Position numbers and translations under genes: made by a program
Notes under the pieces: model-generated
Databases searched by the model: none
What the model was told of the DNA's origin: nothing
The model's input: only the letters and a program-made list of their open reading frames with translations
Part shown: piece by piece, positions 1 through 25,024 of the stretch
Position numbering within the stretch: position 1 is the stretch's first letter
Layout of the letters: the number at the start of each line of letters is the position of its first letter
IMG/VR virus record: IMGVR_UViG_3300035191_000049
Direction: 5' to 3' (one strand)
Length of the DNA: 30,165 bases
DNA from: a virus

Positions 1-16
1 TTTTTTCGACAACACG

Positions 17-1267
17 ATGCCAGACGTTATCATCAACTTCGATGGGTACCGCGTCGAGATGCTCGAATCGATCGACCCGCGGGTCGCCTTCTTTGATGAC
101 ATCTTTGATTGGTCGGTTTCTGGTTCGAGCCGCCCCGAATACGCCTGGGACACCATAGAAAGTCCCCACGCTCGCCTCTATCTCGTCTCCAAAGTTGAAA
201 AGAGGCGAAACAAACCCGTTGCCATCGCGTGGGCCTGGCGAACTCAGGGGGTCTACGAAGAGGTAGAGGGCGGAACGAGGCCGGGCGGAACTCGTATGGA
301 GATGGTCGAGGTCGAGCCCGGACCCATCGTCGTCATCGACGCGGTCCAGACCATCTACAGGACGCGCAAGGCTAACGTGAAGATCTTGAAGGCGATCGAG
401 GCGCTGGCTCATGCGATGCTCGAAAACGAAGAGACTATCACAGAGGTGCGCATTCAAAACGACGAGCTGAGTTCCTACGAAGTTCAGGAATATCTTTCTT
501 CGCCCTATGCCAGCCCGTGGAAGAAAGTAGGCGACGAGAGCGTGTGGCGTGAAGAGATGCACAAACACCCGCAGATCGATAAGTTTGGCCAGGGGTGGAT
601 GCAGACCCAGTGGCTCCTTGCATCACGCGAATCACCAGACGAGAACCCGCAAGAGTGGAAATGCCCGCTCCGCACCGAGATGTACGGCGGCATGCCTGAG
701 GGCGGCAACTTCGGATCCGCAACCATGCTGGAGCTGGGCGCCCAGAACATCGCTGAGGCTGCTCACTGCATCCTTGGCTCTCTCGGAAAGCTGACCAGGC
801 GAGGAGACTCAGGGCAAGACGAGTGGGCGAGGTGGCAGTATTCCCTTGTCTACGAGGTGGCCCATCTCAAAGAGGAGCTGGGCATCATCAACATGTGGGT
901 GTGGAAGTGGTATGAGTACGGCTGGCATCGGGATACTCAGGAGAAATTCAACGACCCGACGCCGGACCAGCTCCCCTACGTCGAGAGATCAGTCGAGAAC
1001 ATCCGAGACGTTGCTCCTCCGCTGGTCGTTCTCGCCGAGCTGAAGCGCGCTCATGTCGAAGCGCAGGAAGACATGCCTGAGCCGATCAAGGCGGCGGCGC
1101 TTTCCTCCTACGACGTAATCATCGCCGTCGCAAACGCTGTTTTCGACGCTGTCGAGGGCTGGCCAGAGGAAAAGGTCTACAACCCCTTCACGGTTACGCC
1201 CCTTCAGGCGGCGACACAGCGGCTCGGAGAGACCATAAATGAGCTACTAACCTACGTGAGGCGATGA
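17..1267 (+). CDS. hypothetical protein (416 aa)
   Basis: ATG at 17 directly after a T-run. Long ORF with GC-rich third codon positions. TGA at 1265-1267 sits one nt before the next ATG. No motif I can name. Confidence 0.6.
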   Translation: MPDVIINFDGYRVEMLESIDPRVAFFDDIFDWSVSGSSRPEYAWDTIESPHARLYLVSKVEKRRNKPVAIAWAWRTQGVYEEVEGGTRPGGTRMEMVEVEPGPIVVIDAVQTIYRTRKANVKILKAIEALAHAMLENEETITEVRIQNDELSSYEVQEYLSSPYASPWKKVGDESVWREEMHKHPQIDKFGQGWMQTQWLLASRESPDENPQEWKCPLRTEMYGGMPEGGNFGSATMLELGAQNIAEAAHCILGSLGKLTRRGDSGQDEWARWQYSLVYEVAHLKEELGIINMWVWKWYEYGWHRDTQEKFNDPTPDQLPYVERSVENIRDVAPPLVVLAELKRAHVEAQEDMPEPIKAAALSSYDVIIAVANAVFDAVEGWPEEKVYNPFTVTPLQAATQRLGETINELLTYVRR

Positions 1268-1268
1268 G

Positions 1269-2225
1269 ATGTCCTTCGATTTGAAGATTGAATGCGACGG
1301 CAATGAATACGACGCCACCATTGATGATGATGGCGACCTGCTCATCTTCGAGTACGATGCCTCCGAAGACGAGACGCTCGCCGAGATGGGTTATGAGCCC
1401 ACAGAATGCATGATGCTTTCGACGGGTTGGAAAGACTTCCGTGCGCTGCTGGAGAAGGACGGTCAGTGGGAAGACTTCATGGACGGCGTCACCGGCGCCG
1501 AAACAACGTTCGAGCTTGACGGTGAGGAGTTCACGGAACGATACGACATGGAGTTTGACGAGTTTCTGGACTACTTGACTACTTTCCTCAAGAAGTCCCT
1601 GGAAGATTTTGACAGCAGAAGCAGGAGTATCGCTCGCATCATCGGAGCGCTTTCGGACAGCTATGGGATCAGCATCGTTCTCCACTCGGTGCATGTTGAG
1701 GACCCTTCCCGGATACTGGAAGATGTCAGTCTTCAGCACATCCCTGAGATTTTTGAGAACGAGCTTGTTATCAACGATAAGTCGATAGCGAAGTGGAAAC
1801 GCGGATCGGCCCTGATCACCAACGACGTAATCGACTTGTACTACACCGAGCACGACATGGGGGAGTATGACGACGACTACAGGCCCCCAGGGATGTGGCC
1901 AGACTTCTGGACTATGGATAACAAAAACGACATGGATCACGTGCTCGCGAGCTTTGGCCTCGAAGACCAAGTCCCGCCACTACCAGAGCGCCCATGGGTT
2001 CCGGAGAAAGATCCCGATGGTCCGTATGGTGTCGAGTTCGTCGACTACTATTGGGACCAGCATGCGCAGGGTGGCAGAGAAATCAACACGACGGTCTGGT
2101 ATCCCGACCTGGAGTCAGCGAAGCGCCATTTCGAGATCGTCACGGACATCGGAACAGCAAACCAGCAGACGGAGGGTTTTCGAGTGATCGATCGAGAGGG
2201 AGAAATTGTCGCTTGGCATTTGTAG
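1269..2225 (+). CDS. paralog family member 1 (318 aa): shared N-terminal module + unique C-terminal region
   Basis: N-terminus FDLKIECDGNEYDATIDDDGDLLIFEYDASEDETLAEMGYEPTEC aligns with the N-termini of 2654-3418, 3421-4149, 4149-4982, 4985-5791 and the reverse gene 24688-24999. GTGAGG SD upstream. GC3-rich. Confidence 0.75.
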   Translation: MSFDLKIECDGNEYDATIDDDGDLLIFEYDASEDETLAEMGYEPTECMMLSTGWKDFRALLEKDGQWEDFMDGVTGAETTFELDGEEFTERYDMEFDEFLDYLTTFLKKSLEDFDSRSRSIARIIGALSDSYGISIVLHSVHVEDPSRILEDVSLQHIPEIFENELVINDKSIAKWKRGSALITNDVIDLYYTEHDMGEYDDDYRPPGMWPDFWTMDNKNDMDHVLASFGLEDQVPPLPERPWVPEKDPDGPYGVEFVDYYWDQHAQGGREINTTVWYPDLESAKRHFEIVTDIGTANQQTEGFRVIDREGEIVAWHL

Positions 2226-2234
2226 GAGAGTTTC

Positions 2235-2657
2235 ATGACGACATACGACTACGTCACCGAGTTTGATCCTGGTTTCAACGAGGGGAAGGTTCGATACGCG
2301 GCCCCCACTCACGTCCTTCAGGTCTATGGGACGCCAACGGAAGCGCGCAAGTACATCGCTGAGGAGTTTGGGCTTCCAGCGATCCCGCCGCCTGTCACCG
2401 TGCTTCCTCCTTACGATATTCGCAGCGGCCCCACGCGCACGTTGACGGTCGTTCCCCCTGGCTCAGTTCCAGGCGACCTGATCTCACAGCCCACCATGTG
2501 GAAGCAGATCGTCCCGGCGACGGGACTCGAAGGCTTCGGCACTGTTGCCAGTGGCAACGGCTCTGGCAACGGTTGGTTTCTCACAATTGGCGCGATCATT
2601 GGAGGATTCGTCCTCGCTCGCGTCGCGGCGGCGATGCTCGAACGGCGGGAGCGATGA
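2235..2657 (+). CDS. small hypothetical protein with C-terminal hydrophobic helix (membrane-anchored?)
   Basis: ATG 2235 preceded by GGAGAG (2224-2229). C-terminus GWFLTIGAIIGGFVLARVAAAML is TM-like. It interrupts the paralog array. Confidence 0.6.
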   Translation: MTTYDYVTEFDPGFNEGKVRYAAPTHVLQVYGTPTEARKYIAEEFGLPAIPPPVTVLPPYDIRSGPTRTLTVVPPGSVPGDLISQPTMWKQIVPATGLEGFGTVASGNGSGNGWFLTIGAIIGGFVLARVAAAMLERRER

Positions 2658-3418
2658 AGTCGAAGACCTTCGAGTTGGTCTGTGACGATGAGCGTCACAC
2701 CTTCATCCTCTACGAAGACGGGTCCATGGAGATTGAGAACTTCGACGAGGAAGAAGCCGAGACGCTTCGAGAGATGGGGTATCGAGAAGACTGTCTGTTT
2801 ACGCTTGAAGACTATCAGAATCGGCCCCTTCGATTCCTCGTTATTTTCTCGACCTATTTGTGTGGCGAAAAGCTTCGGCTGCTGCTTCACGGCATGATCG
2901 CAGAGTATTTTTACATGGTCCGAGAGGCGGTCCCGACGGACATGGCGAACCATCTCGAAAGAATGATGAATGTCATCGAGGAGGGCGACGGTTACAAAAG
3001 AGGCGATTGGGTCTGGGCAAAGAAAATGATCCGCAACTGGACTCAATTGAAAAAAGAAGCGCGGTGGCGCAGAGAGGACAAGGCCATGTATCCCACAGTC
3101 GTCGTGGGGCGAGGGCCTGACCCTGAGGTGGAGCGCCGTGTTCAAAAGATTTGCCTAACGATCATTTCTTTGTACGTCAGAAGCAGCAAGGGGGCGTTGG
3201 ATTGTGGGCAGTCTGCGGCGAAACGCATTGATGCATGGGACAATGTAGAGGAAATCGTACATAGGATAAGAGAGGTCGCCAGAGAACTTGCTGTCGATGA
3301 AGTCGTGGAAGCGGGCGGCGGTCTCAATGATATCGGTGACGTCAGGGAAGAGTCTTTCGAGGAATTTAATAGAGAGATTTTTGAAAAAGCTCTCAACATC
3401 ATCTTCGAGGAGGACTGA
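2654..3418 (+). CDS. paralog family member 2 (254 aa)
   Basis: ATG 2654 overlaps the upstream stop (ATGA). N-terminus KTFELVCDDERHTFILYEDGSMEIENFDEEEAETLREMGYREDC. The ORF-track start 2498 is a frame extension overlapping gene 2235-2657. Confidence 0.7.
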   Translation: MKSKTFELVCDDERHTFILYEDGSMEIENFDEEEAETLREMGYREDCLFTLEDYQNRPLRFLVIFSTYLCGEKLRLLLHGMIAEYFYMVREAVPTDMANHLERMMNVIEEGDGYKRGDWVWAKKMIRNWTQLKKEARWRREDKAMYPTVVVGRGPDPEVERRVQKICLTIISLYVRSSKGALDCGQSAAKRIDAWDNVEEIVHRIREVARELAVDEVVEAGGGLNDIGDVREESFEEFNREIFEKALNIIFEED

Positions 3419-3420
3419 CG

Positions 3421-4149
3421 GTGCCGGTTTCGATCACTATCTACTGCGACGACGAGCGTCAGGACGTCATCATCTATGAGGACGGATCCTTCGAGTTCGT
3501 GGGCTACGACTTCAGCGAGGACTTGACGCTCGAAGAGCTTGGATATGAGCCCTCGGATTGCCTGAGCGCGGCAAGGGAACTTGAAGGCGACATGGTCAAC
3601 TTTCTCCTGGGGTCGTGGACGGGCCTCGCATTCAACGCCGGCATCGAAGACATTCCTGGGACGGCCGTCGAATACGTCCTCGACTGCTTTGCTCACGTCG
3701 CTCAGCAGTTTGGAGAGGCGGTTCCAGATTTCAAGTGGGTGGCTGGGGATGTCATAACGATAGCGCGTGCTCACAACATGAACGTCGACAACGTCGAGCT
3801 GGAAGAGAGCATGTGGATTCGTGCCGACCTGATGCTGAAGTGGTTGCGTCAGTATGGTGTGCGCAGCGAGCCGGTTCCTTACGACCGCGAAGAGATGGAA
3901 AAAGTCCTCAATGAGTACATCGTCCTGCTCAAGGATTTTCTCAAGTACATCCTGAACGAGGACAACCTGCTAGAAGACATGGCCAGCGGAGACATTGATA
4001 CGACCGTCAGCCAGCTTCGTATCATCATGTCGGACTATGCCAGGGCCACTGGAGACCTCGAAGACCCGACCGCCAGCGAGATCGAAGAGGTCGAGTTCCG
4101 AGAGGAATCGTGGCAGCTCGCTCGGCTCTTGCAGTATTTGGAGGCGTGA
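3421..4149 (+). CDS. paralog family member 3 (242 aa)
   Basis: GTG start with strong SD GAGGAGGA upstream. N-terminus VSITIYCDDERQDVIIYEDGSFEFVGYDFSEDLTLEELGYEPSDC. Confidence 0.75.
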   Translation: MPVSITIYCDDERQDVIIYEDGSFEFVGYDFSEDLTLEELGYEPSDCLSAARELEGDMVNFLLGSWTGLAFNAGIEDIPGTAVEYVLDCFAHVAQQFGEAVPDFKWVAGDVITIARAHNMNVDNVELEESMWIRADLMLKWLRQYGVRSEPVPYDREEMEKVLNEYIVLLKDFLKYILNEDNLLEDMASGDIDTTVSQLRIIMSDYARATGDLEDPTASEIEEVEFREESWQLARLLQYLEA

Positions 4150-4982
4150 TGTCAGTGATCGTTCCTGTGAACTGTGAGAATACTCAGATCGAGATCGAAT
4201 TCTTTGAACACGGGAGCTTCGACGTTCACGGCTACGATATCGAAGAAGCCAAAGTGCTCGAAGAGATGGGCTACGACACACCCGAGTGTCTTGCGTTCCT
4301 TCGGAGGTTGAGCCAAAGGACACTCCGGTTTCTCCTCAAGCGGGTGCCACTCGACCCCTACGAGCTGATGATTACCTACCTGCTCGACTGCCTGCAGCAC
4401 TCCGCGGACTACGCCGAGTTCGATGAGTTCATCCCCTGGATGGATCAGGTTGCCGAGGCGATCCGGGAACTGGGGACTGAGGGAGAGCCCCTGCAAGGCG
4501 AGCTGTATGAGGAAGCTATCGGCCAGTACCGAAAGTTCAAGGAGTGGTGGACGCTCGAATATGGTGATTACATCTCTGGCGAAAGAGCAATTCAGAGTGG
4601 TTTTCGTGAATATGGGGGTCAAGAATTTGACGGGAACTACATGGCCTACCTCAACGACATAGTAAAGGCACACCTTCGATGGATCTTGGGGATGGCGATC
4701 GATCAAGACCCCAAGCGCGCGTGGGACCCAGGCGGCATGGGCTTTCCCAAGCTCTACCATTTCGTTGACGCCATGGCCAAGGGTGCCTCTTATTTTAGGG
4801 TATTCAAGGAATACCCAGAAATCACATGGGAGGATACTCTTGTCTACGAAGAGGGCATTTGGTTTCCGGCAACGGATGCTCCTCAGACTGCACAAACAAT
4901 CGATTTTCACGAACGCTTTTTCCCCGAGGAGCGCGCCTGGCAGATTGGCCGCTACGTCAAGTATCTTGAAGGCACGGAGTAG
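4149..4982 (+). CDS. paralog family member 4 (277 aa)
   Basis: ATG 4149 overlaps the TGA of the previous gene (TGATG). N-terminus VIVPVNCENTQIEIEFFEHGSFDVHGYDIEEAKVLEEMGYDTPEC. The segment after the module (RTLRFLLKRV...ITYLLDCLQH) also resembles members 2 and 3. Confidence 0.7.
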   Translation: MSVIVPVNCENTQIEIEFFEHGSFDVHGYDIEEAKVLEEMGYDTPECLAFLRRLSQRTLRFLLKRVPLDPYELMITYLLDCLQHSADYAEFDEFIPWMDQVAEAIRELGTEGEPLQGELYEEAIGQYRKFKEWWTLEYGDYISGERAIQSGFREYGGQEFDGNYMAYLNDIVKAHLRWILGMAIDQDPKRAWDPGGMGFPKLYHFVDAMAKGASYFRVFKEYPEITWEDTLVYEEGIWFPATDAPQTAQTIDFHERFFPEERAWQIGRYVKYLEGTE

Positions 4983-4984
4983 CC

Positions 4985-5791
4985 ATGGAGTGCATGTTCA
5001 AGGTCGGTGATGACTACGTCGGCATCGAGATCGACGACGAGGGGAATCTTCTCATCGACCAGGACGACATCGAGGAGGCAGTCGTTCTCGCCGAGATGGG
5101 CTACCCCATGAGTGACCTTGTCAAGTTCTACGACGCCTGGGCTCACCTCGAATACAACGAGCGCTGGAAGATCGTGAACCGCGGCGGCGATTTCGCGACG
5201 AGCGGCGATATTGGTGCGCTCCCTGTCTACAGCTATCTCAACGCGGAGCAGCGAGCGTGCCTCTCACTGAGTCTGACCGAGAAAGACAGGGCCGACGCTG
5301 CGCTCTATGCCGACAACCTCAACCCAGAGCTTCGTCTTCAGATGATCGAGAGCATCGGGACGGATGAAGCGTGGTCGAACTTTCTGGGCGAGTACCGATT
5401 CCTCGACGAGCAGCGACAGCGACAGCTCATCGACCAGCTCGCTCCCGAGTGGAAGGGCTGGCTCGCCCGCAAGGCGCGGGTGCTGACATATCCTCATCGT
5501 TTTGAGCTGATACTTGAAGCCCCGGACGGCGAGAAGATGGAGTTCCTGCAGACGCAGCAGTGGCTGACGCAGAACCAGCAGTTCGTCCTGATCAACTCAC
5601 TGGAGGACGAAGAATCTCTCTTCCACGTGCTCAGGTTGCCGCTCCAGCTCGCGATCACCTCTGACCAGAGGTTCGCCTTCGCCGATGCGATCGAGGACCC
5701 AGGACTGAGGGAAGAGCTGGCCCGCGTAGCGCCAGGACTCACTGATCAGCAGCGGGCTCTTCTGATCGATCCTGAGCTTGAGCCTCTTTGA
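4985..5791 (+). CDS. paralog family member 5 (268 aa, degenerate module lacking both Cys)
   Basis: N-terminus KVGDDYVGIEIDDEGNLLIDQDDIEEAVVLAEMGYPMSDL aligns with member 1 (DDDGDLLIFEYDASEDETLAEMGY). Its 3' end overlaps the convergent MTase gene by 53 nt. Confidence 0.7.
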   Translation: MECMFKVGDDYVGIEIDDEGNLLIDQDDIEEAVVLAEMGYPMSDLVKFYDAWAHLEYNERWKIVNRGGDFATSGDIGALPVYSYLNAEQRACLSLSLTEKDRADAALYADNLNPELRLQMIESIGTDEAWSNFLGEYRFLDEQRQRQLIDQLAPEWKGWLARKARVLTYPHRFELILEAPDGEKMEFLQTQQWLTQNQQFVLINSLEDEESLFHVLRLPLQLAITSDQRFAFADAIEDPGLREELARVAPGLTDQQRALLIDPELEPL

Positions 5792-6485
5792 TTCGCCGTG
5801 TAGAAACTTCGATCGCTTCGTCGCAAATATCACTTCCGCAGAAGATGCGCCCCAGCTCGACAGCCGCGACGCCGGCCGAGCCGCTCCCGCAGAAGGGGTC
5901 GCAGACGACTTCGCCAGGCTCAGTGCTTTGGCTGATGAGCGTCCGGAGGACGGGGACTGGCTTCTCGGTGGGGTAGCCCTTGTAGATGCGTTTCTCTCTG
6001 ATGACGTCTGGAATGGAGAGGTCGTTGAGCTTTCGCTTTCCTTTTTCGAAGAAGAGGATCAGTTCGTACCGGGCTCTGTAGTGATAGCCCATGCCGATGG
6101 CGACCTTATCCCATACGAGCGGCTTGTGGAACGTGAACCCGGCCTCTTCGGCGATCGGCTTTGCCACAAACATCGTTTCCTGGTCACAGAACAGGTAGCA
6201 ATGTGAATCCATCCTGAGGACGCGGTACAGTACTCTGAACAGATCATCGAAGCGTGAGTTTGGGAAGATTTGAAACCAGTCATTTGAAGAGGATTTCGAG
6301 TGGCTGAGCCTGGTCGTTGTCCCTTTTGCTCGGTGTTTCTCCAGTGATTCGTAGGGAGGGTCGGTCACGACGAGGTCGACCGATTCGTCCTCAAGACTTC
6401 CCAAAAAGTCAAGCGCATCCTGCTTAACGACCTGTGAAGTGACAAATCGCGGTCCCCCGCGAAAAAAGAGCGGTTCCTGTTTCAT
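5739..6485 (-). CDS. DNA methyltransferase, beta-class amino-MTase (N6-adenine or N4-cytosine), 248 aa
   Basis: Motif IV VVTDPPY comes before motif I VVCDPFCGSGSAGVAA. DPPY before FxGxG defines the beta class. Start set at internal Met 6483-6485 (MKQEPLFFRGG...). The 581-aa ORF-track version has an R/G/P-rich N-terminal extension overlapping the + gene 6573-7334. Confidence 0.8.
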   Translation of the reverse strand: MKQEPLFFRGGPRFVTSQVVKQDALDFLGSLEDESVDLVVTDPPYESLEKHRAKGTTTRLSHSKSSSNDWFQIFPNSRFDDLFRVLYRVLRMDSHCYLFCDQETMFVAKPIAEEAGFTFHKPLVWDKVAIGMGYHYRARYELILFFEKGKRKLNDLSIPDVIREKRIYKGYPTEKPVPVLRTLISQSTEPGEVVCDPFCGSGSAGVAAVELGRIFCGSDICDEAIEVSTRRIKEAQAQDRSEEPAADQ

Positions 6486-6495
6486 CGGCGGCAAT

Positions 6496-6541
6496 ATAGC
6501 ACATGCAATATCCTCTGGACAAGGTAGGTTGCATATGTTAC
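6496..6541 (+). promoter_or_regulatory. divergent regulatory region: partial palindrome ATAGCACATGCAAT (6496-6509), TGGACA (6516-6521), palindrome GTTGCATATGTTAC (6528-6541)
   Basis: Lies between the leftward MTase start (6485) and the rightward gene 6573. Same architecture as the other four sites. Confidence 0.55.
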
Positions 6542-6572
6542 CCCTAGGATATGTGCGAGCGAAAGGACCATC

Positions 6573-7334
6573 GTGATGTCCAAGGAAAAAGAGCGATGCC
6601 CCGAGTGCAGAATGTTGGGCCAGCACAAGCTTCAGTGCAGTCGTCGTGAGGACGGAGGGCAGGTGCGCCTGCCTATGAAGATGGTCAAGCGCGCTGTGCC
6701 TCATCCAGAGCACCCCTCGGGAAAGGACCACTTCTCCGTCCAGGTGCTCTCTGACCCATGGTGTTGGGTCGTTGTCCGCTTCAAGCTCGAAACGATGCAC
6801 GAGGACATGGGGACGCTCATCACCATGCTCGGGGCCGACTACGGATCGAAAAGCCCCAAGATGCTCCGGGACGATCTGTTCCGAATGGAGTTCCCCTTCA
6901 GCGATGGAAATACTCACGCTGGCATGTTCGCGCTCGAAGCGTGGCAGGCGCTCAGCCGCAACATGTGGTGCGGCGATCTCGACGAAGAGCTTTCCTTCTT
7001 CAGGACCCATCGAACTATCTGGGAGCTGGGCCACGAGCTGACCTACCACGAGGAGCTGAAGATTCTCCGTTTCCTGCGCGATAACCCCGAGAAGCAGTGG
7101 GGGAAGAAGGGGGCTGTCCTCATCGAGCTTCAGGACACGCTGGGCATTGGCGGCGGCGCCATCCTCACGCTCATCGAGCCGAGCGGCGGCTTCGAGGATT
7201 ACCAGTACGTCGTCACCATCGGCGGCTTCCGCTCCGGCAACCCCTTTACCATCGACCTGCCAGCCGTCGAAGCGCGGATCGCCCTGATGGAGGAACAGGG
7301 GCCTCCAGACCCCTGGGAGGAGTCGGCAGATTGA
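6573..7334 (+). CDS. hypothetical protein with N-terminal CPEC-x9-C zinc-finger-like motif (253 aa)
   Basis: GTG 6573 / ATG 6576. GC3-rich long ORF. Lies downstream of the divergent palindrome region. Confidence 0.6.
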   Translation: MMSKEKERCPECRMLGQHKLQCSRREDGGQVRLPMKMVKRAVPHPEHPSGKDHFSVQVLSDPWCWVVVRFKLETMHEDMGTLITMLGADYGSKSPKMLRDDLFRMEFPFSDGNTHAGMFALEAWQALSRNMWCGDLDEELSFFRTHRTIWELGHELTYHEELKILRFLRDNPEKQWGKKGAVLIELQDTLGIGGGAILTLIEPSGGFEDYQYVVTIGGFRSGNPFTIDLPAVEARIALMEEQGPPDPWEESAD

Positions 7335-7732
7335 TTTGGTTTGTTTCACTCGACGAGGGTCGTTTTCACATCTACTGCAAAGACGGCCGCAAGAACGACG
7401 GCAAGTGGTTCGATCCTGATGATATCGAAGGGATGAAGGCGTTCTGTAAGAAGATGGAGATCGATCACGTCTGCGGCCTCTCATCGGTTGACTTTCCTGA
7501 GGAGAATGGGCTCGACGAGGACTTCAATGCCAATGAGGTCATCGGCAAGGTGCTATGGTCAGGTCCCGCTCTCCTTCACCTCCAGGAAGGTCTCGTGTCC
7601 CTGTACCGCGCCTATCACTCGGGCCAGCTCACCGAGGACGAAGCCAACAGGCTGGAGAAGGCTGGCGACGAGATCAAAGCTATCTACGATGAGGCCGAGC
7701 CTCGTCTCAACCCCGGTGGTAACCCCGAGTGA
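7331..7732 (+). CDS. hypothetical protein (~133 aa)
   Basis: TTG 7331 overlaps the stop of the upstream gene (TTGA). The ORF-track start 7097 lies in another frame inside gene 6573-7334, so it is rejected. The start codon is uncertain. Confidence 0.4.
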   Translation: MIWFVSLDEGRFHIYCKDGRKNDGKWFDPDDIEGMKAFCKKMEIDHVCGLSSVDFPEENGLDEDFNANEVIGKVLWSGPALLHLQEGLVSLYRAYHSGQLTEDEANRLEKAGDEIKAIYDEAEPRLNPGGNPE

Positions 7733-8013
7733 TCTGTCTACGCTGCGGCTACTGCTGCACAACCACCATGGTCGTCATCGTGGACGACCCAAAGCTCGGC
7801 ATCGTAGAAGATAACCTCAAGGCCGTGGGCTTCAATGGTCCCGAGCGATGTCAGCATCTCGTCGGCGACAAGCCAGGCGAGTATTCCTGCGCCGTTCACG
7901 ACGAGCCCTGGTACTGCGAGACGCCTTGTGCCTCTCACGGGCAGATTGAGCGATCGCCCACAGACGAGTGCCGAATGGGTCGCTACATCCTAGACGGTGG
8001 CCTCGACGACTAA
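7729..8013 (+). CDS. CxxCxxCC cysteine-cluster protein (YkgJ/UPF0153-like putative metal-chelating domain)
   Basis: N-terminus ICLRCGYCC matches CxxCgxCC, with further Cys downstream. GTG 7729 overlaps the upstream stop. Confidence 0.55.
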   Translation: MICLRCGYCCTTTMVVIVDDPKLGIVEDNLKAVGFNGPERCQHLVGDKPGEYSCAVHDEPWYCETPCASHGQIERSPTDECRMGRYILDGGLDD

Positions 8014-8034
8014 TTGCATCTGCTACTTTTTCAC

Positions 8035-8060
8035 TGGACAAGAAATGTAGCATATGCTAC
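8035..8060 (+). promoter_or_regulatory. promoter/operator-like site 2: CTTTTTCAC-TGGACA-AGAAAT-GTAGCATATGCTAC (perfect 14-bp palindrome)
   Basis: Sits in the 60-nt gap after the 8013 stop. A T-tract lies just upstream. The degenerate half-site TTGCATCTGCTAC at 8014-8026 sits alongside. Confidence 0.55.
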
Positions 8061-8073
8061 CTCTCTCTGCACT

Positions 8074-8229
8074 ATGGGTGAGGAGTCGATTTACGAGAAG
8101 AGCGAGTGCCCGGTCTGCCATCGCATGGAGTACTGTGACTGGTTTCTTTTCGGTGAATACCGCTGCGATTCTTGCTACTTCAGCTACATCTACTCCATGT
8201 GGGACACCTGGAGATTATTGGGGTATTGA
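8074..8229 (+). CDS. small zinc-ribbon protein (51 aa)
   Basis: MGEESIYEKSECPVCHRMEYCDWFLFGEYRCDSCYF contains CxxC-x3-C and CxxC. The first ATG lies downstream of promoter-like site 2. The TTG 8014 start in the ORF track would read straight through the motif. Confidence 0.45.
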   Translation: MGEESIYEKSECPVCHRMEYCDWFLFGEYRCDSCYFSYIYSMWDTWRLLGY

Positions 8230-8486
8230 TGATGCGTCGCAAAGATGCGCCAAAGCAAAAGAAGCAGAAGAGCTACTCGCTCAAGTGGCTCGGCATGAAC
8301 TTCATGATCGATGTCTACAAGACGGACGACGAGAAGCACAAGCTCTACTGGATCTGGAAAGAAGACTCTCCGGGCGTCTACGCGCTCCGAGCGGTCATCC
8401 CTGTCGTCAGTGGCAAGCCGATTCTCTCGGCTGGCCACCTGGCCTACGGCTTCATGCTGGGAAAGCTCAAGGCGCTCCGTGGCTGA
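8229..8486 (+). CDS. hypothetical basic protein (85 aa)
   Basis: ATG 8229 overlaps the upstream TGA. The ORF-track 8172 start lies inside the previous gene. Confidence 0.5.
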   Translation: MMRRKDAPKQKKQKSYSLKWLGMNFMIDVYKTDDEKHKLYWIWKEDSPGVYALRAVIPVVSGKPILSAGHLAYGFMLGKLKALRG

Positions 8487-8778
8487 GTTCGCAAAGATCT
8501 TTTTTGCTGCGTTCATCTGGGTGCTGTTTATCGGCATCAACACTCGAATTGTGGCCCATAGAACCGATTTCCTCATTCCGGCCTTCTGGTCGATGGTCGT
8601 CGGCATCGTCTGGGTCATCGTCATCCGTGAAGTCATTTTTGCAGAGCACGTCAGGTCGCTCGCGGCCTATCCGATAGGCGCAGCCCTCGCAACCGGGCTC
8701 GTCACCAAGTTCGTTCCGTCACGGGCCAAATGGCTCAATCACGACTGCAAGGAGAAAGAAGACAATGCCAAGACTTGA
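8479..8778 (+). CDS. small membrane protein (2-3 predicted TM helices)
   Basis: Hydrophobic stretches FFAAFIWVLFIGI and FWSMVVGIVWVIVI. Start assigned to GTG 8479 and is uncertain. Confidence 0.45.
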   Translation: MAEFAKIFFAAFIWVLFIGINTRIVAHRTDFLIPAFWSMVVGIVWVIVIREVIFAEHVRSLAAYPIGAALATGLVTKFVPSRAKWLNHDCKEKEDNAKT

Positions 8779-12018: not shown

Positions 12019-12501
12019 ATGGGCTATCGAACCACCAAAATCGAAACCCCCATGCTCGTCAAACGCTGGTGGGCTCGGCCCGTCTGCTGGTTTATCGGTC
12101 ACAAGTGGTATGTGCTCGGCATCAACATGGGGAAGAACGCCGGGCTCTCGCACCTCCATCCAGACGCCGGCATCGACAAGTTCTGCACCCGTTGCGGAGC
12201 CGAATGGTACGACGGCAAAATGGTGACCGATGGCTTCCAACGCGCGCCTCGCGACAAAGAACCCATCCCCCCGAAGAAGAAGCTGAAGAAGCCGGTTATC
12301 AAGAAGCCGAAGCGTCCGAAGCGTCCAAAGCGTCCGAAGCCACCGACGAGCCCATGGAGGATGAAGATGCGTCCGAAGACGAGCCCATGGAGGATGAAGA
12401 TGCCTCCGAAGCCGCCTATGCCGAAGATGCCAAAGATGCCGAAAATGTCTGACTTTGGTGGCGGCATCTTTGACTCCACCATATTCGACAAGGACGATTA
12501 G
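12019..12501 (+). CDS. basic K/P-rich repeat protein (160 aa) with N-terminal CxxC domain
   Basis: ATG follows the upstream TAG directly. The C-terminal half is encoded by DNA tandem repeats (PKRPKRPKRPK, 2x TSPWRMKM, 3x PKM). GC3 analysis favours this frame over the acidic overlapping frame 12069-12452. Confidence 0.55.
   Translation: MGYRTTKIETPMLVKRWWARPVCWFIGHKWYVLGINMGKNAGLSHLHPDAGIDKFCTRCGAEWYDGKMVTDGFQRAPRDKEPIPPKKKLKKPVIKKPKRPKRPKRPKPPTSPWRMKMRPKTSPWRMKMPPKPPMPKMPKMPKMSDFGGGIFDSTIFDKDD
12307..12449 (+). repeat. in-frame tandem repeats (4 x 9 bp CCGAAGCGT-like; 2 x 33 bp GACGAGCCCATGGAGGATGAAGATGCGTCCGAA; 3 x 9 bp ATGCCGAAG)
   Basis: Direct repeats are visible in the sequence. The repeat unit boundaries are approximate. 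Confidence 0.7.
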
Positions 12502-13001: not shown

Positions 13002-13615
13002 AAGTCGGCGTAGCAGCCATCATCGAGCGCGACGGCAAGATCCTCATGGGCCAGAGGAAAAACTCACACGGGGCCGGCCGCTGGTCCTTTCCAGGTGGAC
13101 ACATCGAGCCCGGTGAGACGCCAGAGCAGGCCTGCGAGCGCGAGGCAATGGAGGAGACGGGACTGCGGTTGCTCAACATTCGCCGTGGCCCATGGACCAA
13201 CGATATCTTTCTTGCAGAGAAGAAGCACTACATCACCCTGTTCCTCTTTGCCGATGCAGAAGGCACGCCTGCGCTTCGAGAACCTGATAAGTGCGCAAAA
13301 TGGCTCTGGGTTGAAAAGGACAACATTCCATTTCCCCAGTTTCTCCCCGTTTTCAATCTGATGAAGGAACACCCTGACATCCTTGGAAAGCAGCCGGATG
13401 GTGTCTCCGACGACGCAGGTGTCCCCGTTGAGATCCAAAGGGGGCTCCAGTCCAATGCCGATAAGCTCGATGCGATGGGCGGGACCTGTCCGGAGTGCCA
13501 GATCACCGCGGACATGTTCCGATACCTTCCCGTCGCCAACTACTTCAACCTCGGCACCAGATGCACGGGGACATGCAAGACATGCGGCATAGGCCCATGG
13601 GAGGAAATACTGTGA
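12989..13615 (+). CDS. NUDIX hydrolase with C-terminal Cys4 zinc-ribbon-like extension
   Basis: Perfect Nudix box GGHIEPGETPEQACEREAMEETGL (G-x5-E-x7-REUxEExGU). C-terminus has CPEC...CTGTCKTC. Start ATG 12989; GTG 12965 is also possible. Confidence 0.8.
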   Translation: MDKVKVGVAAIIERDGKILMGQRKNSHGAGRWSFPGGHIEPGETPEQACEREAMEETGLRLLNIRRGPWTNDIFLAEKKHYITLFLFADAEGTPALREPDKCAKWLWVEKDNIPFPQFLPVFNLMKEHPDILGKQPDGVSDDAGVPVEIQRGLQSNADKLDAMGGTCPECQITADMFRYLPVANYFNLGTRCTGTCKTCGIGPWEEIL

Positions 13616-14442
13616 GCGAGACAGAAAAACCACGCATTCAAGAGATGATCGCAGTCCATCTCATCAGCGACAAGGAGGGGAGCCCGGCTCATGGCTGGGT
13701 TCATACCCATGGGCTCGACAAGTTCGGGCTCCCCGAGCTGGAGATTCGCGGGCTCCAGACGTTTCTCTACGGGATGGCTGGCAGCATCCTTAATCAGGTC
13801 GGCGAGTACATGATCGAGCTGAAAGAGGAGGGGCGAGCCATCAATCTCGGTGAGTCCATGCAGCTCGGAGACAAGTTCTGCATCTTTCAGTTCGCCAAGC
13901 TCCCTCCTATCGAAGGTCATGAGCACCACTACGAAGTCGAGCGCTGGTGTCTCGTCGAGCCCCCTGGAGCGCACGATTTCTGCGAAGGCTGCAAGACAGG
14001 ACCACTCTCCTATGAGCACGGGGAGGAAGCCTGTGACTGCGGGCAGTGCGGCTGCAACCACGGGGTCGACGAAGAGCAGAAGATGGAGGTCGAGTTTCTC
14101 GACGCGGTGGGTGAAAAAATACCCTACCACGCCATGGAGGCGATTGCTGCCTGGACGCTAGCCGACCCCCAGGCTGCCTTCGCAATGCTTATCGATCGAC
14201 TCGATGAGAAGGGAATGGCTACCATCGAAGTGGTCAGCGATGAAGAGAAGTACGTGAGACTCACCGATCGCGTCAAAGAGGCCATCGAAGCCGGTAAGTC
14301 CTCTGACCTCATCGATGAGATCCTCGACGGCTGGAAGCACCAGAAGCATGTCGAGGCGATCCAGGGCGAGGAGTTCTGCGAAATGCCCGTCTCTGGGCGC
14401 GTTGCCAAGCTCGTCGAGCTGTTCGGCGAGACTCCGTTATAA
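13612..14442 (+). CDS. hypothetical Cys/His-rich protein (276 aa)
   Basis: GTG 13612 overlaps the upstream TGA. Motif HGWVHTHGLDKFGLPELEIRG is loosely reminiscent of SUFU-like domains, from memory and unverified. Cys cluster CEGCKTG...CDCGQCGCNHG. Confidence 0.55.
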   Translation: MSETEKPRIQEMIAVHLISDKEGSPAHGWVHTHGLDKFGLPELEIRGLQTFLYGMAGSILNQVGEYMIELKEEGRAINLGESMQLGDKFCIFQFAKLPPIEGHEHHYEVERWCLVEPPGAHDFCEGCKTGPLSYEHGEEACDCGQCGCNHGVDEEQKMEVEFLDAVGEKIPYHAMEAIAAWTLADPQAAFAMLIDRLDEKGMATIEVVSDEEKYVRLTDRVKEAIEAGKSSDLIDEILDGWKHQKHVEAIQGEEFCEMPVSGRVAKLVELFGETPL

Positions 14443-14488
14443 TCCATCCTCAGGACTATTCATCTCCGCAAGACCTCGACCTTTTTTC

Positions 14489-14515
14489 TGGACACCGCTG
14501 TGTAGCACATGCTAC
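14489..14515 (+). promoter_or_regulatory. promoter/operator-like site 3: CTTTTTTC-TGGACA-CCGCTGT-GTAGCACATGCTAC followed by TTTTGG
   Basis: Sits in the 107-nt intergenic gap 14443-14549. T6 tract directly upstream of the -35-like TGGACA. Confidence 0.55.
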
Positions 14516-14549
14516 TTTTGGTACCGCACAAAGTCAAAGGTACGGCCCC

Positions 14550-14897
14550 ATGACTCACAGAACCAAAGCAATCGGGTGGGGGATACCCACCGCGCTCATG
14601 TTTGCCTTCTGGATCAACTTCATTTTCACCGCTCCAGGCTGCGAGGACCCGCCGTCGACGACCTGTAACAATATTTGCGACAGCGCGAAGCCGGCAGAGT
14701 GCTCTGGAGGAGGGCAGATTCTCAGCGTCAACGAGTCTGGTGAGGAGGAACCGCTCGGGACCGAGTCCTACTGGATGTGTGTTTGTCGCGGTGAGGACAA
14801 CAGGGCTATTCAGTTTCTCTCGAAGCGCGTCCGGTGCGCGATGCCCCGTGAGTCTGTGGCTTACGGAGAAGGCGAGGCTGGATACAGCGACGACTAG
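14550..14897 (+). CDS. Cys-rich protein with N-terminal hydrophobic segment (secreted/membrane?) (115 aa)
   Basis: N-terminus IGWGIPTALMFAFWINFIFTAPGC followed by 8 Cys. First gene after promoter-like site 3. Confidence 0.55.
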   Translation: MTHRTKAIGWGIPTALMFAFWINFIFTAPGCEDPPSTTCNNICDSAKPAECSGGGQILSVNESGEEEPLGTESYWMCVCRGEDNRAIQFLSKRVRCAMPRESVAYGEGEAGYSDD

Positions 14898-14906
14898 GGG
14901 GGATCA

Positions 14907-15194
14907 ATGTCGCTCGGCGAAGCAAAGATGGCAGCGCTCTGCGCGCTCAAAAACTGTGGCGAACAGGATGGTCGATTTCAGACCTATGGACACCTCGCTG
15001 GCTGGGTCGTTGACGAGTTCGATTACAAGGATCGACTTGTGTCCGAATTTCTCAACTGGTGTGTATGGCGCAAGATTACGAAGCCCACACGGTTCGACCG
15101 TCCTGACGATGGAAAACGTGTGAGCGGTTACGAGATCGATTTTCAGCAGATCGAACGAGCGCTCGAATTTCTGGAGGCGAAAGCACATGCCTAA
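14907..15194 (+). CDS. hypothetical protein (95 aa)
   Basis: G-rich SD then ATG 14907. GC3 bias. Confidence 0.55.
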   Translation: MSLGEAKMAALCALKNCGEQDGRFQTYGHLAGWVVDEFDYKDRLVSEFLNWCVWRKITKPTRFDRPDDGKRVSGYEIDFQQIERALEFLEAKAHA

Positions 15195-17724
15195 GATCGT
15201 TGGAGTCAGAGAGAGCTGCTGCTGGCGCCCCATTTTCGACACATGGTTCGATGGGGGCTGCGTCATCCCCGAGCATTTTCGCGATGCGGCCAAGGCGCTC
15301 ACAGAGCACGAGGGGAACTCCGACTACGAATGCACCAGCGACGACTGGTTCAAATACCTGCGCTTCTATATCGACGGGCCGAACGACAACATGGCCAAGG
15401 ACACCGAAGAGTTTATCGTCTGGTGTCAACACGTCGGCATCTTTACCGTCAGGGTCGAAGCTATGAAGCCGGCCGTCTTGGAGCTGAACAAAAAGCAACT
15501 CGACTCGATGATCTACGACCAGAATGTGCTTGTCGTCCTGCACCACTTCAGGGATCGCGCCAAGAAAAAATACTGTGGGATGGGGTTTCCGACGGCGAGA
15601 GACATCGCTAGAGAGTACGACTTTGACGCGGACTTCGTCTACTCGGTCATCGTCTGGATGAAGTGCGAAAGCACCTTCAAGCTGAACGGCCAAATTAGAC
15701 CCGACGCTGTCGACAAGCTCATCAGTGACATCGTCAACCGCAATAGATTCCAGAAGCATGAGGAGGAGCCGATGCCTCAAACCGTACAAGAAGAGCTAAC
15801 CAAGCTCCGCCAAGAACAGCTCAGTGCCTTGTGGTGGGTCGCCACCGAGACCAGCAGCGAAGAGACACCGACCTACGCAAAGCCAATGACCCTGAGGCAG
15901 CTCCATAAGCGCCTGCTCCTTACCCGAGCGTTCAAGGGTTCTTCAGATCGAAAGCTCAACGCTTTTATCAACTGGGCGTCGGCTTGCAATAACTTCATCT
16001 ACAAGACGGATGACGAGCTGTACCACATCAACCTCATTTATATCGCACAACACTTCAAGGACAAGGCTCGCTGGTTCGTTCAGCCCTTCTTCCCAAATGC
16101 GCTCATAGGACTCCGATGGATCGCCGAGAAGAACAACTGCGACGAGTTCGACCGCGAGATCGAGTGGTATCACCTGCGCTGCGGTCCATACTTTTCGAAC
16201 CTCGAACAAACGAAGGTCTTTTGTCTCTGGTGCCAGTGGGAAGGCATCCTGCGCCAGAAGACGCCGGGTGTCGTCGCCTTCGTCTATAACGAAGAGCAGC
16301 TCAACCGAGCGCTGGGCGAGTACATGGACGAGCAGAAGCTCAAAGAGGCGACAGAGTGGGATCCCACCGCCTCTGGCGAGCGCTTCCCCGGCGAGGAGAA
16401 AGCTCTTCAGTGGATGGTCGACAACTACGGGGGGTCCTGGATGTTCATCTCGGGCATCACCCAGGGCATCTTCGAGAAGAAGCGCGTACAGGTTCAGAGC
16501 GAAGAGCTTGAGTGGTTGCGCCAGTTCATGACCCGGCGACCTGCCGACCATCCAGAGGGCATGAAAAAGGGCATCGAGTACTTCGGCATCGACTACCAGG
16601 CGGCTGAGAACCGTCTCTATGAGATAGCGGAAACGAGGCAGAAGATGGGCTACAAGCATGAAGACTTCAAAGGTGAGAAGCGTGTCCTTCAGTACCTGCT
16701 CCGAGTACAGGGTAGCTGGCAGGGAGCGGACGCCGACGTGGCCATTCAAAAGGCCATCAAAGGAACGGCTGAGGCGAACGGAATCGACGTAGATCTTTTC
16801 AAGCAGTACAGCCTCGAATTCCCGTGGCTGAACGTCGGTACAGAGAAGACGCGTAAAGAGGACCACATGGGTAACCTCACCCGGAAGAAAGTCAGCGTCG
16901 CGACGGTCGACAAAGATACAATCCGCGAACGTCTCGCTCTCCTCGGTTTTATCGACATCGACGCCGAAATGAAGCCCGAGGTGCAGCTCCGTGCTCTCAT
17001 GATGACGCTGAAGCACGAGAGCGGAAGCAAGACCTGGGAAGACCTCATCAACTGCCCCTGGGACTGTCACATCCAAGCAGCAGGCGGCTACAAGTCCATG
17101 TGGCGCAAGATCGCCCAAGACATGAAGCAGCGGGGCATCATCAAGGTGGTCAGGGAAGCCGGCAAGAAGGGTGACCGGCACAAGGTGGACACTGCTCTGC
17201 TCAAGAATCGAATGGAAGAGCTGCAGCGGGTGATCGAGATGAAGGGCGGTCGGTGCTCAGAGGTTCTGGTTCTGAAGGACCAAGAGTGCGACGACTGCAA
17301 CACCGTGTTCAACCCGAGCGATCCCGGCGTCGAGAGCCAAACATCAGGAGACGGCGACATCTGCCCATCCTGCGAGCAGACTCGCATCGCGGTCGAGATC
17401 GCCGAGCACCGAACGTGGCTCGCGAGCACCTTCAAGACCTCGATGGGTTCTGGACCGCCGCCCGGGGAAGTCGCGGCCTCCATCATATACGGCCATGCGA
17501 CCGCACTCGCTGGCTCCGAGCACATCGCGTGGCTCCAGGAACAGATCCGCAACGCGAAGAAGCTCACTAACGAGCCGACGCGTTACATGCAGTGGATGAA
17601 GGCGTCTGAGCTGCTGAGTCGCGTCGAGTCGCGCGTCAAGGGCGTCAAGGTCACAGAAGACGGACTTCTCCTCTCGAACTACCAACAGGCACGGCTGCGT
17701 CTGGAAGAGATGACAGAGGAGTAG
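15187..17724 (+). CDS. large hypothetical protein (845 aa)
   Basis: Long ORF with consistent GC3 bias. Start overlaps the upstream gene by 8 nt. No catalytic motif I recognise. Several CxxC pairs near the C-terminus (CDDC, CPSC). Confidence 0.7.
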   Translation: MPKIVGVRESCCWRPIFDTWFDGGCVIPEHFRDAAKALTEHEGNSDYECTSDDWFKYLRFYIDGPNDNMAKDTEEFIVWCQHVGIFTVRVEAMKPAVLELNKKQLDSMIYDQNVLVVLHHFRDRAKKKYCGMGFPTARDIAREYDFDADFVYSVIVWMKCESTFKLNGQIRPDAVDKLISDIVNRNRFQKHEEEPMPQTVQEELTKLRQEQLSALWWVATETSSEETPTYAKPMTLRQLHKRLLLTRAFKGSSDRKLNAFINWASACNNFIYKTDDELYHINLIYIAQHFKDKARWFVQPFFPNALIGLRWIAEKNNCDEFDREIEWYHLRCGPYFSNLEQTKVFCLWCQWEGILRQKTPGVVAFVYNEEQLNRALGEYMDEQKLKEATEWDPTASGERFPGEEKALQWMVDNYGGSWMFISGITQGIFEKKRVQVQSEELEWLRQFMTRRPADHPEGMKKGIEYFGIDYQAAENRLYEIAETRQKMGYKHEDFKGEKRVLQYLLRVQGSWQGADADVAIQKAIKGTAEANGIDVDLFKQYSLEFPWLNVGTEKTRKEDHMGNLTRKKVSVATVDKDTIRERLALLGFIDIDAEMKPEVQLRALMMTLKHESGSKTWEDLINCPWDCHIQAAGGYKSMWRKIAQDMKQRGIIKVVREAGKKGDRHKVDTALLKNRMEELQRVIEMKGGRCSEVLVLKDQECDDCNTVFNPSDPGVESQTSGDGDICPSCEQTRIAVEIAEHRTWLASTFKTSMGSGPPPGEVAASIIYGHATALAGSEHIAWLQEQIRNAKKLTNEPTRYMQWMKASELLSRVESRVKGVKVTEDGLLLSNYQQARLRLEEMTEE

Positions 17725-21288: not shown

Positions 21289-21876
21289 TCAGCGGACGAT
21301 CCAGGTTGCCAGCGCCAACGGCTGCCAGTTATCGGCGTTCCAGGACTCCAAATTCAGGTCGTGATCCTCGACGGCCTTTTCTATATCCGCTGGCCCCACC
21401 TCTCCCGGCCAGTCATGCACGCTCACGACGCTCCCCGGGGCCATCAGCGGAACGAACGTGTAGAACTCCCATTTCTTAGAGCCGTTGTCACAGTAGAGGT
21501 AGGCCGGTTCGGTTCCCAGTGCCTCGATCACCTGAGGCTTGCCAATGTCAGAAAAAATGTCAGTCCAGTGCGTCTGTATCCCGAGCGCATCGTAGATGGG
21601 CTTCGCCCCGTCGTCGATGTTGTGCTCCTTGTTAAAGGGAAAAGAATCCTGGTCGAAGGTGTGCATCGGAATGCCGAGCCTCACGGCCCACAGACCGAGA
21701 TAGATCGACATTGCACCCATAGACGTTCCAAGCTCGACGATCGACCGAATCTGCCTGTTCTCGTGCAAGAGCACACTGAGCTGATGGTAAAGCGCGAAGG
21801 CGTGCTGAGCGCGCTGTCCCGCAAAGAGTTTTTCGTAGCCAAAGGTCGTTACTGAATCCGTCAACGCTGCCTCCAT
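21289..21876 (-). CDS. class I SAM-dependent methyltransferase, TylF/CmcI-like (195 aa)
   Basis: Motif I IVELGTSMGAMSIYLG follows the IvE.G...G.S pattern of TylF/CmcI O-MTase-like enzymes. GC3-rich on the minus strand. The divergent region upstream carries palindrome site 4. Confidence 0.6.
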   Translation of the reverse strand: MEAALTDSVTTFGYEKLFAGQRAQHAFALYHQLSVLLHENRQIRSIVELGTSMGAMSIYLGLWAVRLGIPMHTFDQDSFPFNKEHNIDDGAKPIYDALGIQTHWTDIFSDIGKPQVIEALGTEPAYLYCDNGSKKWEFYTFVPLMAPGSVVSVHDWPGEVGPADIEKAVEDHDLNLESWNADNWQPLALATWIVR

Positions 21877-21882
21877 TTTCCC

Positions 21883-21908
21883 TGGACACCCAAGGTAGCA
21901 TATGTTAC
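21883..21908 (+). promoter_or_regulatory. divergent promoter/operator-like site 4: CATTTTCCC-TGGACA-CCCAAG-GTAGCATATGTTAC; TACTTT sits 17 nt after TGGACA
   Basis: Lies between the leftward gene start 21876 and the rightward gene 21954. Confidence 0.55.
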
Positions 21909-21953
21909 TTTACGGGCGCAACCGAAAGCAATTGTTTATCACTAGGGGCCTAC

Positions 21954-24999: not shown

Positions 25000-25024
25000 T
25001 TTTTCCGGAGCCCCCTTTTATGAT

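Follow-up and report, generated by a model that had tools for sequence, protein, structure and literature searches.

The DNA analysed here is a 30,165-nucleotide stretch of the IMG/VR virus record IMGVR_UViG_3300035191_000049 (the window), in which a 14-bp palindrome, GTAGCATATGCTAC, or a close variant of it recurs between genes, usually with the hexamer TGGACA 6 or 7 nt upstream and a T-rich or pyrimidine run before it. The arrangement of these parts gives good support to a sigma-70-type promoter family, and on balance we lean towards a set of such promoters that would be read by the host RNA polymerase and would hold, embedded in them, an operator bound by a dimeric protein.

The results of our mismatch search showed that GTAGCATATGCTAC had exactly five matches in the window when up to two mismatches were allowed, while 0.02 were expected and none of 100 shuffled sequences reached five. 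These are the five copies that a sequence-only reading of the window had named, and four of them are variants of GTAGCATATGCTAC with 1-2 mismatches. That reading had also taken 6496-6509 and 8014-8026 for degenerate half-sites; they are indeed degenerate, but both proved to be full copies, with four and three mismatches, respectively. The copies were as follows.

6528-6541: copy GTTGCATATGTTAC, found with up to two mismatches
8047-8060: perfect palindrome GTAGCATATGCTAC, found with up to two mismatches
14502-14515: copy GTAGCACATGCTAC, found with up to two mismatches
21895-21908: copy GTAGCATATGTTAC, found with up to two mismatches
25025-25038: copy GTTGCATATGCTAC, found with up to two mismatches
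8013-8026: sixth copy ATTGCATCTGCTAC, found when up to three mismatches are allowed
6496-6509: degenerate full copy ATAGCACATGCAAT, four mismatches

All of the palindrome copies of the window were located in intergenic DNA, which amounts to about 1.1 kb of the 30.2 kb (3.6%, with gene calls taken from identical public contigs), and the scan of the window found no complete copy within a gene, as had been claimed. Flanking sequence was available for a further 8.7 kb upstream (contig L051) and 7.9 kb downstream (contig L003) of the window, and these 16.6 kb contained no copy, with the single exception of a chance-level match with three mismatches inside a gene. The motif is thus confined to the part of the window between 6.5 and 25 kb, which holds mostly small genes. 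The sequence CATATG was neither depleted nor enriched elsewhere (5 found, 5.2 expected).

The hexamer TGGACA, which matches TTGACA at five of six positions, was present upstream of four of the five copies, at 6516-6521, 8035-8040 and 21883-21888 with a spacing of N6 to the palindrome and at 14489-14494 with a spacing of N7. The hexamer and the T-tract were always located on the side opposite to the downstream plus-strand genes. A T-tract or pyrimidine tract had been reported before all five palindromes; the runs are there, but their strength is uneven, with strong T runs at 8027-8031 and 14482-14487, TTTCCC at 21877-21882, the pyrimidine run TTTTTCC at 25000-25006 for the 25025 site, and only ATCCTC at 6510-6515.

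A scan of metagenomes with the composite pattern returned 36 loci, eight of which (L007, L011, L014, L017, L027, L028, L030 and L035) were diverged phage relatives with partial similarity to the window, about 40-70% at the protein level and about 60-70% identity in coding DNA. The block T-tract/TGGACA/N6/GTWRCAYATGYTAC/CTTTGG persisted in these relatives, its conserved form being TTTTC-TGGACA-N6-GTAGCACATGCTAC-CTTTGG, while the flanking intergenic DNA could not be aligned and even the neighbouring genes differed. The N6 spacer was completely variable among sites, which argues that conservation of the block is selective and does not result from recent duplication. The block of the 14502 site was kept in L030-9236, L007, L017, L035 and L014 between unalignable flanks, that of the 21895 site was identical in its L028 orthologue, and the L027 site related to the 6528 site kept the block together with CCCTAG after it. 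A gene of 231 amino acids (aa) was found behind the promoter on the methyltransferase side in L011 and L027 and behind another promoter in the window.

Comparison of 12 non-identical sites from the window and its relatives showed that the conserved positions follow the plan of a sigma-70 promoter. TGGACA was present at all but one main site of the relatives, and the hexamer of L030-6533, TTGCCA, is another five-of-six match to TTGACA. The distance from the hexamer to the TAC of the right half of the palindrome was 17 bp (N6 plus 11 bases of the palindrome), or 18 bp with the N7 of the 14502 site. The right half itself, (T/C)ATG-n-TAC, has the form of a TRTGn extended -10 element and is followed by YTT at most sites; its TG and TA were invariant (12/12), and the only freely variable base in this half was the "n" of TGn. 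Extended -10 elements of the TRTGn type are known from promoters of the sigma-70 family, and leaderless mRNAs are common in Actinobacteria and Deinococcus-Thermus.

Transcription is predicted to start 10-11 nt past the palindrome, and a Y-R step was observed at +10 to +12 after it. In-frame start codons that lack a Shine-Dalgarno (SD) sequence were located at +11 for the methyltransferase of the window (ATG at 6485, 11 nt past the degenerate palindrome), L014 and L030-9236 (GTG), at +14 for a 51-aa open reading frame (ORF) at 8074, and at +16 for the methyltransferase of L027. An in-frame ATG at +11 was also present in L011 and L027-4208, but alternative starts preceded by an SD exist there. 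The methyltransferase mRNA of the window is probably leaderless, given the position of its ATG and the lack of an SD, whereas genes with longer leaders had purine-rich SD-like sequences, and GGAG-type ribosome-binding sites preceded most genes of the window. This recurring geometry of the start codons is the best available evidence for the promoter function and for the leaderless nature of some transcripts. The earlier suggestion of a promoter family is well supported at the sequence level by the orientation of the sites towards the downstream genes, the 17-18 bp spacer to TGnTAC, the conservation of the block as an island and the SD-less starts at +11 to +16. When the gaps of the window that lack the motif were compared for a second class of promoters, they had no motif in common.

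The individual sites were laid out as follows.

6516-6544, plus strand: P6528, rightward, with TGGACA at 6516-6521, N6, GTTGCATATGTTAC at 6528-6541 and TACCCC at 6539-6544 as putative -10
6485-6521, minus strand: putative methyltransferase promoter, leftward, with TGTCCA (complement of 6516-6521), N6 and ATTGCATGTGCTAT (6496-6509)
8013-8026: degenerate upstream copy ATTGCATCTGCTAC, 34 bp upstream of the 8047 copy
8027-8063, plus strand: P8047, with a T-tract at 8027-8031, TGGACA at 8035-8040, N6, the palindrome at 8047-8060 and TACCTC at 8058-8063
14482-14518, plus strand: P14502, with a T-tract at 14482-14487, TGGACA at 14489-14494, N7, GTAGCACATGCTAC at 14502-14515 and TACTTT at 14513-14518
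21877-21921, rightward: putative bidirectional site, with TTTCCC, TGGACA at 21883-21888, N6, the palindrome at 21895-21908 and TACTTT, predicted to drive 21954-22649
21877-21921, leftward: the same site, with TTGCGC (complement of 21916-21921), N7, the same palindrome and TACCTT
25025-25054: the 25025 site, GTTGCATATGCTAC, between a 103-aa gene (24688-24999, minus strand) and a 642-aa gene (25070-26998)

P6528 would drive the gene at 6573/6576-7334, whose product has an N-terminal zinc ribbon, and the next two genes. Facing it, ATTGCATGTGCTAT contains TGcTATATT, and a generic scan gave TTGTCC-18-TATATT with a TG. P8047 is predicted to head about 17 small genes in a block extending to 14442. 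The 51-aa ORF at 8074-8229, whose ATG lies 14 nt past the palindrome, encodes a Cys-rich product (CxxC...CxxC); this ORF ends at the start of the next gene and was called on public contig L053 and not on others. The copy at 8013-8026 may serve as an auxiliary operator or be what is left of a tandem promoter. P14502 would drive 14550-14897, 14907-15194 and the 845-aa gene, and transcription would continue to about 21288. On the minus strand at 14509-14537, the generic scan gave TTGACT-17-TAGCAT, with the TAGCAT of the palindrome as -10, and a leftward transcript from this match could be antisense to the end of gene 13597-14442. At the 21895 site, the leftward ATG of a 195-aa gene (21289-21876) lies at +19 from the palindrome. 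At the 25025 site, the left half of the palindrome contains TTGCAT at 17 bp from a perfect TATAAT (25049-25054), so that this palindrome overlaps a -35 position too; it also carries TGcTACCTT.

The symmetry of the palindrome goes beyond what these promoters would need. Base pairs T2/A13, C5/G10 and A6/T9 were invariant at the 12 sites, G1/C14 and G4 were nearly so, and position 4 of the half-site tolerated G or A in both halves. The left half was intact at four unidirectional sites (8047, 14502, L030-9236 with its orthologues, and L014), where there is neither a leftward gene nor a -35-like hexamer on the right flank. Pair 3-12 was broken at five of the 12 sites, one double change was seen, and covariation was not above that of shuffled data (281/500); with variation that is not compensatory, a DNA or RNA hairpin is not supported. 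It is plausible from this pattern that a dimeric DNA-binding protein uses the 14-bp dyad, with half-site GTWRCAY, as its operator, a reading that we prefer because the left half does not vary even where RNA polymerase has no need of it, because of the dyad symmetry, and because covariation is lacking. The sequence-only reading had proposed a dimeric regulator; the invariance of the left half and the dyad symmetry agree with it, while no cognate DNA-binding protein was found in the window.

According to the mechanism that we propose, the promoters would head the transcription units of a region of about 19 kb made up of small, probably early genes. The T-rich tract at about -43 to -37 would act as an UP-like element and TGGACA as the -35, and the right half of the palindrome together with YTT would supply a TRTGn extended -10 and a weak TAnnnT -10. 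The left half, which mirrors the right, would not be needed by the polymerase for rightward transcription. With a dimer seated at about -24 to -11, the -10 region would be blocked and all promoters of the set would be silenced together, either as a temporal switch or as lysogenic repression. At divergent pairs, one regulator would control both directions through a shared dyad or through an added second dyad.

Several observations weigh against this mechanism. The 25025 copy is without TGGACA, and the -10 hexamer TACYTT is weak, with a 3/6 match to TATAAT, which is why a generic sigma-70 scan misses the sites, and with its last T present at eight of the 12 sites and missing at four. The spacings of paired dyads (32, 34 and 48 bp) do not keep a constant helical phase, which gives no indication of cooperative binding. 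About 55 proteins of the window were searched with Pfam, and 20 of them with PHROGs; none showed a DNA-binding domain, and ten proteins of the flanking contigs L051 and L003 gave no DNA-binding family in PHROGs. The only candidate for a regulator that binds the palindrome, and a weak one, is a 95-aa orphan (14907-15194, plus strand), for which a single-sequence AlphaFold2 (AF2) model with a predicted local distance difference test score (pLDDT) of 55 and the topology H-H-H-E-E-H hints at a small PadR-type winged-helix-like fold; its top Foldseek matches were PadR/Pex/MarR/RTP winged-helix proteins, all with E >= 0.14 and thus not significant, and an exhaustive HMMER search of 1.8 billion representatives gave no homologue. 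Each half of the palindrome is also the extended -10 of the opposite direction, so that the symmetry could stem from a bidirectional function. Finally, the same composite occurs at sites of soil bacteria and of a Phycisphaerales metagenome-assembled genome (MAG), and if these are related to the phage sites, the binding factor would be that of the host.

Composite scans of metagenomes and of species-representative genomes returned these chromosomal loci from soil and rhizosphere bacteria with a GC content of 56-62% and from the Phycisphaerales MAG. The chromosomal element is a palindrome of 40-58 bp centred on the composite, TGGACAAATTCGT-GTAGCATATGCTAC-ACGAATTTGTCCA, which was found at L016, L019, L021, L022, L024, L026, L032, L036 and L037, and also at L041 (586 and 821), L038, L029/L039, L034 and L045 (5621-5634). 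A fuller form, TGGACAAAT(T/G)CGT-GTAGCATATGCTAC-ACGAATT(T/C)(G/T)(T/C)CCA, has the same 14-mer as its core. The neighbours were an S9 peptidase gene (L021 and orthologues), an operon of a BadF-type kinase and SIS preceded by the site (L029/L039), a pectate lyase gene preceded by the site (L034) and an AhpC gene followed by it (L038), while in the Phycisphaerales MAG (L045) the site lies between the gene of a DtxR-family regulator and znuA/ABC transporter genes. The palindrome had no match in Rfam. In those bacteria the element is real and occurs at several loci; it may be an operator, a bidirectional promoter or a repeated element.

Among the other explanations of the phage sites, a symmetric core promoter that works in both directions without a separate regulator, with two extended -10 elements (TGnTAC on each strand) back to back and a flanking -35-like hexamer that sets the favoured direction, is unlikely but has to be weighed seriously. 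Each half of the palindrome reads TRTGnTAC, the distance from a palindrome to the start is 11-26 nt for all three minus-strand genes of the window, and extended -10 promoters can function without a -35. One dyad has -35-like hexamers on both sides, at N6 or N7, at the 21895 site (TGGACA/TTGCGC), at L030-6533 (TTGCCA/TTGTGA) and at L011 (TGGACA/ATGACG). Other divergent pairs have received a second dyad (6496 in the window and L027-4256), and in the 6528 region the back-to-back promoters share the hexamer region in the order palindrome-N6-TGGACA-N6-palindrome. The earlier idea that three divergent copies could control both directions is only partly borne out: it fits 21895, with its hexamers on both sides, but not 6528, where the methyltransferase has its own dyad (6496-6509), nor 25025, which has no hexamer on either side. 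The four unidirectional sites, which retain a perfect left half with no leftward gene and no right -35-like hexamer, count against a purely bidirectional role. A T at position 3 of the left half occurred at 6528 and L027-4208, where the leftward gene has a second palindrome, and also at 25025, which lacks one; it appears from this that the left half can do without the leftward TAC, whereas the rest of its positions are kept. Divergent transcription in bacteria is known to arise from sequence symmetry (PMC10268837, citing Warman 2021), and the dyad shares with the class summarised in that source a pseudo-symmetric core between divergent genes that the polymerase could in principle engage both ways. 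As outlined there, however, the class has starts 7-25 bp apart, mostly 18 bp, with reciprocal -11A/-7T and an odd-centred TAnnnTA (Warman et al. 2021 in PMC10268837), whereas the dyad here is even-centred and the implied divergent starts are about 35 bp apart, which places it outside the class so described. An alternative reading through TATGCT would put the starts 23 bp apart, but TGGACA would then be only 12 bp from the -10.

It is less probable still, and on the whole we doubt, that a host regulator or a host sigma specificity reads the dyad and that the phage promoters copy the chromosomal composite TGGACA-N6/7-GTAGCAYATGCTAC. Host regulators such as DtxR (at the corynephage tox promoter), LexA and Fur control phage promoters, the chromosomal loci share TGGACAAA-N3-4-T-GTAGCAYATGCTAC with a mirrored arm, and at L041 another copy, not forced by the pattern, lies 235 bp from the first. 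The likeness to the phage sites was, however, imposed by the search pattern, and the features that were not imposed (AAA past the hexamer, T before the core and the mirrored arm) are absent at the phage sites, so that a real link between phage and chromosome is possible but unproven. The number of matches was about that expected by chance, several were clearly unrelated (L020, for example, looks eukaryotic), the phage relatives and the bacterial loci stem from different sets of metagenome records, and the genes beside the bacterial sites have no common function. We give the same low credence to the wider form of this idea, in which the composite would be an element native to a bacterial lineage, planctomycete-like or another from soil, and the early promoters of the phage would be wired to a host factor; host physiology would then gate infection by this very novel phage, whose genome is at least 138 kb long. 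It appears very improbable that the block is read as a whole by a sigma factor or RNA polymerase encoded by the phage, with the symmetry being incidental. The phage is large, nearly all of its proteins are unrecognisable, including those of 845, 642 and 1056 aa, and the conservation of the block exceeds the needs of sigma-70, yet the conserved parts stand exactly at sigma-70 positions (-35, the 17-18 bp spacer, TGn and TAnnnT), the hexamer drifts to TTGACA-like variants in the relatives, and a polymerase that works in one direction would not be expected to require three invariant base pairs of perfect symmetry; moreover, the spacing of sigma-54 is not respected and hairpin promoters of the N4 type are unsupported. 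A site without a role in transcription (a parS-like centromere, a packaging or nuclease site, a methylation target or an intrinsic terminator) is the least credible of all and can hardly be entertained. Dispersed palindromes of 14-16 bp can act as centromeres, N15 being an example, one copy directly adjoins a DNA methyltransferase gene, and two copies appear as weak terminator-like hairpins in the output of a simple scan; such a site, however, would leave the oriented -35-like hexamer and the fixed distance to the start codon unexplained, no ParB-like protein was found, and the stem is of only 5-6 bp, with an AT-rich centre and no consistent T-run after it.

Four assignments were tried on the sites and rejected. 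For sigma-54 (TGGCAC-N5-TTGCW), the G-to-G distance in TGGACA-N6/7-GTWGCA is 14-15 bp instead of 12, and the spacing varies. A hairpin, terminator or structured RNA would require compensatory pairing, which was not seen, and there were no Rfam matches. A Bacteroidetes-type TAnnTTTG -7 element, TACCTTTG, fits only 4-5 of the 12 sites, and most genes have a GGAG SD. When TAGCAT or TATGCT of the palindrome is taken as the -10, TGGACA is 7 or 12 bp away and the starts at +11 are left unexplained.

The set of promoters that we favour, with its proposed embedded operator, is most likely a co-regulated phage promoter set of a familiar kind, whose logic is closest to that of the phiC31 promoters. In phiC31, a Streptomyces phage, the early promoters have conserved inverted repeats (CIRs) that are bound by the repressor c, and in mycobacteriophages L5 and Bxb1 the repressor sites are dispersed in intergenic DNA. 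As in these phages, many short copies of a putative operator lie in gaps of the probably early region and adjoin or overlap promoters, and with many copies of one operator, one protein can silence a whole set of genes. The phiC31 sequence and host are nevertheless unrelated, and its early promoters are not sigma-70-like as are those described here; the L5 sites are asymmetric and act as "stoperators" inside transcription units, unlike the present dyad. Unlike the phiC31 and L5 systems, the sequence examined here gave neither a repressor gene nor an integrase. With ordinary extended -10 promoters the sites share a TG one base upstream of a putative -10 of the TAnnnT type, a T/C-A before it and a -35 at 17-18 bp, and with leaderless mRNAs they share SD-less start codons at the predicted start site; they differ in that TACYTT is an unusually poor, C-containing -10 and in that the spacer half mirrors the -10 half and is equally conserved. 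The PeSL-type mobile early-promoter cassettes of T4-like phages, reportedly described by Arbiol and colleagues in 2010, resemble the sites in that repeated promoter modules bound cassettes of small genes whose order varies between relatives. There is, however, no stem-loop terminator partner here, and PeSL-like recombination at the modules is an analogy only. GTAGCATATGCTAC is also the core of the site bound by EBNA1 of Epstein-Barr virus in oriP (GGGTAGCATATGCTACCC), with an identical 14-mer, and a literature search for the exact string returned only EBNA1 sites and primers. This match is almost certainly a coincidence, EBNA1 being a protein of a eukaryotic virus with no counterpart here, and a match to a 7-position dyad is expected by chance among thousands of sites.

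Almost none of the proteins of this phage lineage can be recognised, and the promoter set gives a first way into how its genes are regulated. From it come a consensus for the promoter, a prediction of the transcription units, a 14-bp bait for the putative regulator and, as a clue to the host, starts that are probably leaderless. The mechanism is conventional, and its value is practical (annotation, host inference and synthetic parts) and not conceptual, unless the chromosomal link proves to be real.

The surrounding phage is more unusual than the promoter element. The window is likely part of a large, uncultivated and very novel phage, as indicated by DUF5662, of which relatives are held in phage records, by its dense small ORFs and by contigs that reach 123.6 kb and have no cellular genes; none of its genes was recognised as a structural hallmark. 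Two overlapping contigs of 71 kb and 67 kb from the same sample indicate a genome of at least 138 kb, and the further contig is that of 123.6 kb. No relative of the window was found in INPHARED and IMG/VR. Among the proteins of the window, Pfam matches above threshold were limited to a DNA methyltransferase, NUDIX, DUF4026_C and DUF5662, and Macro and Methyltransf_24 gave only weak sub-threshold matches. The 845-aa protein (15187-17724) gave no homologue when 5.8 billion proteins were searched at E <= 0.001; neither it nor the 642-aa protein (25070-26998) matched Pfam or PHROGs, and the 1056-aa protein of L003 (12610-15780) had no match in PHROGs or in the precomputed Pfam results of the contig. 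In contrast to these orphans, the methyltransferase gene (N6_N4, 5739-6485, minus strand) is highly mobile and conserved, its product sharing 65-73% identity with thousands of proteins in several phyla, including those of Myxococcota MAGs, cyanobacteria, Vibrio and Acidobacteria. When the methyltransferase was used as a lead to relatives of the phage, the two long contigs examined were cellular or integrative and did not contain the motif.

Window positions 1-5791 and L051 positions 292-8732 form a tandem array of at least 13 paralogous genes on the same strand, which encode proteins of 240-560 aa. Common to the paralogues is a conserved module of about 60 aa at the N-terminus (DNA repeat family D1, ...CTCGxxGAGATGGGxTAC); they had no Pfam match, their sole PHROGs match was weak and local (43 aa, toxin of a toxin-antitoxin system), and the block contains no copy of the palindrome. 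A 33-bp tandem duplication in perfect register, 97% identical (GACGAGCCCATGGAGGATGAAGATGC(G/C)TCCGAA), is located at 12345-12410 within gene 12019-12501, where it encodes a doubled acidic unit of 11 aa. Two small proteins, encoded at 29843-30127 and 29400-29588, have C4 zinc-finger/zinc-ribbon signatures with weak sub-threshold matches to DksA/TraR-type proteins and to TiaS/Brz zinc ribbons, and are possible polymerase-binding or nucleic-acid-binding factors.

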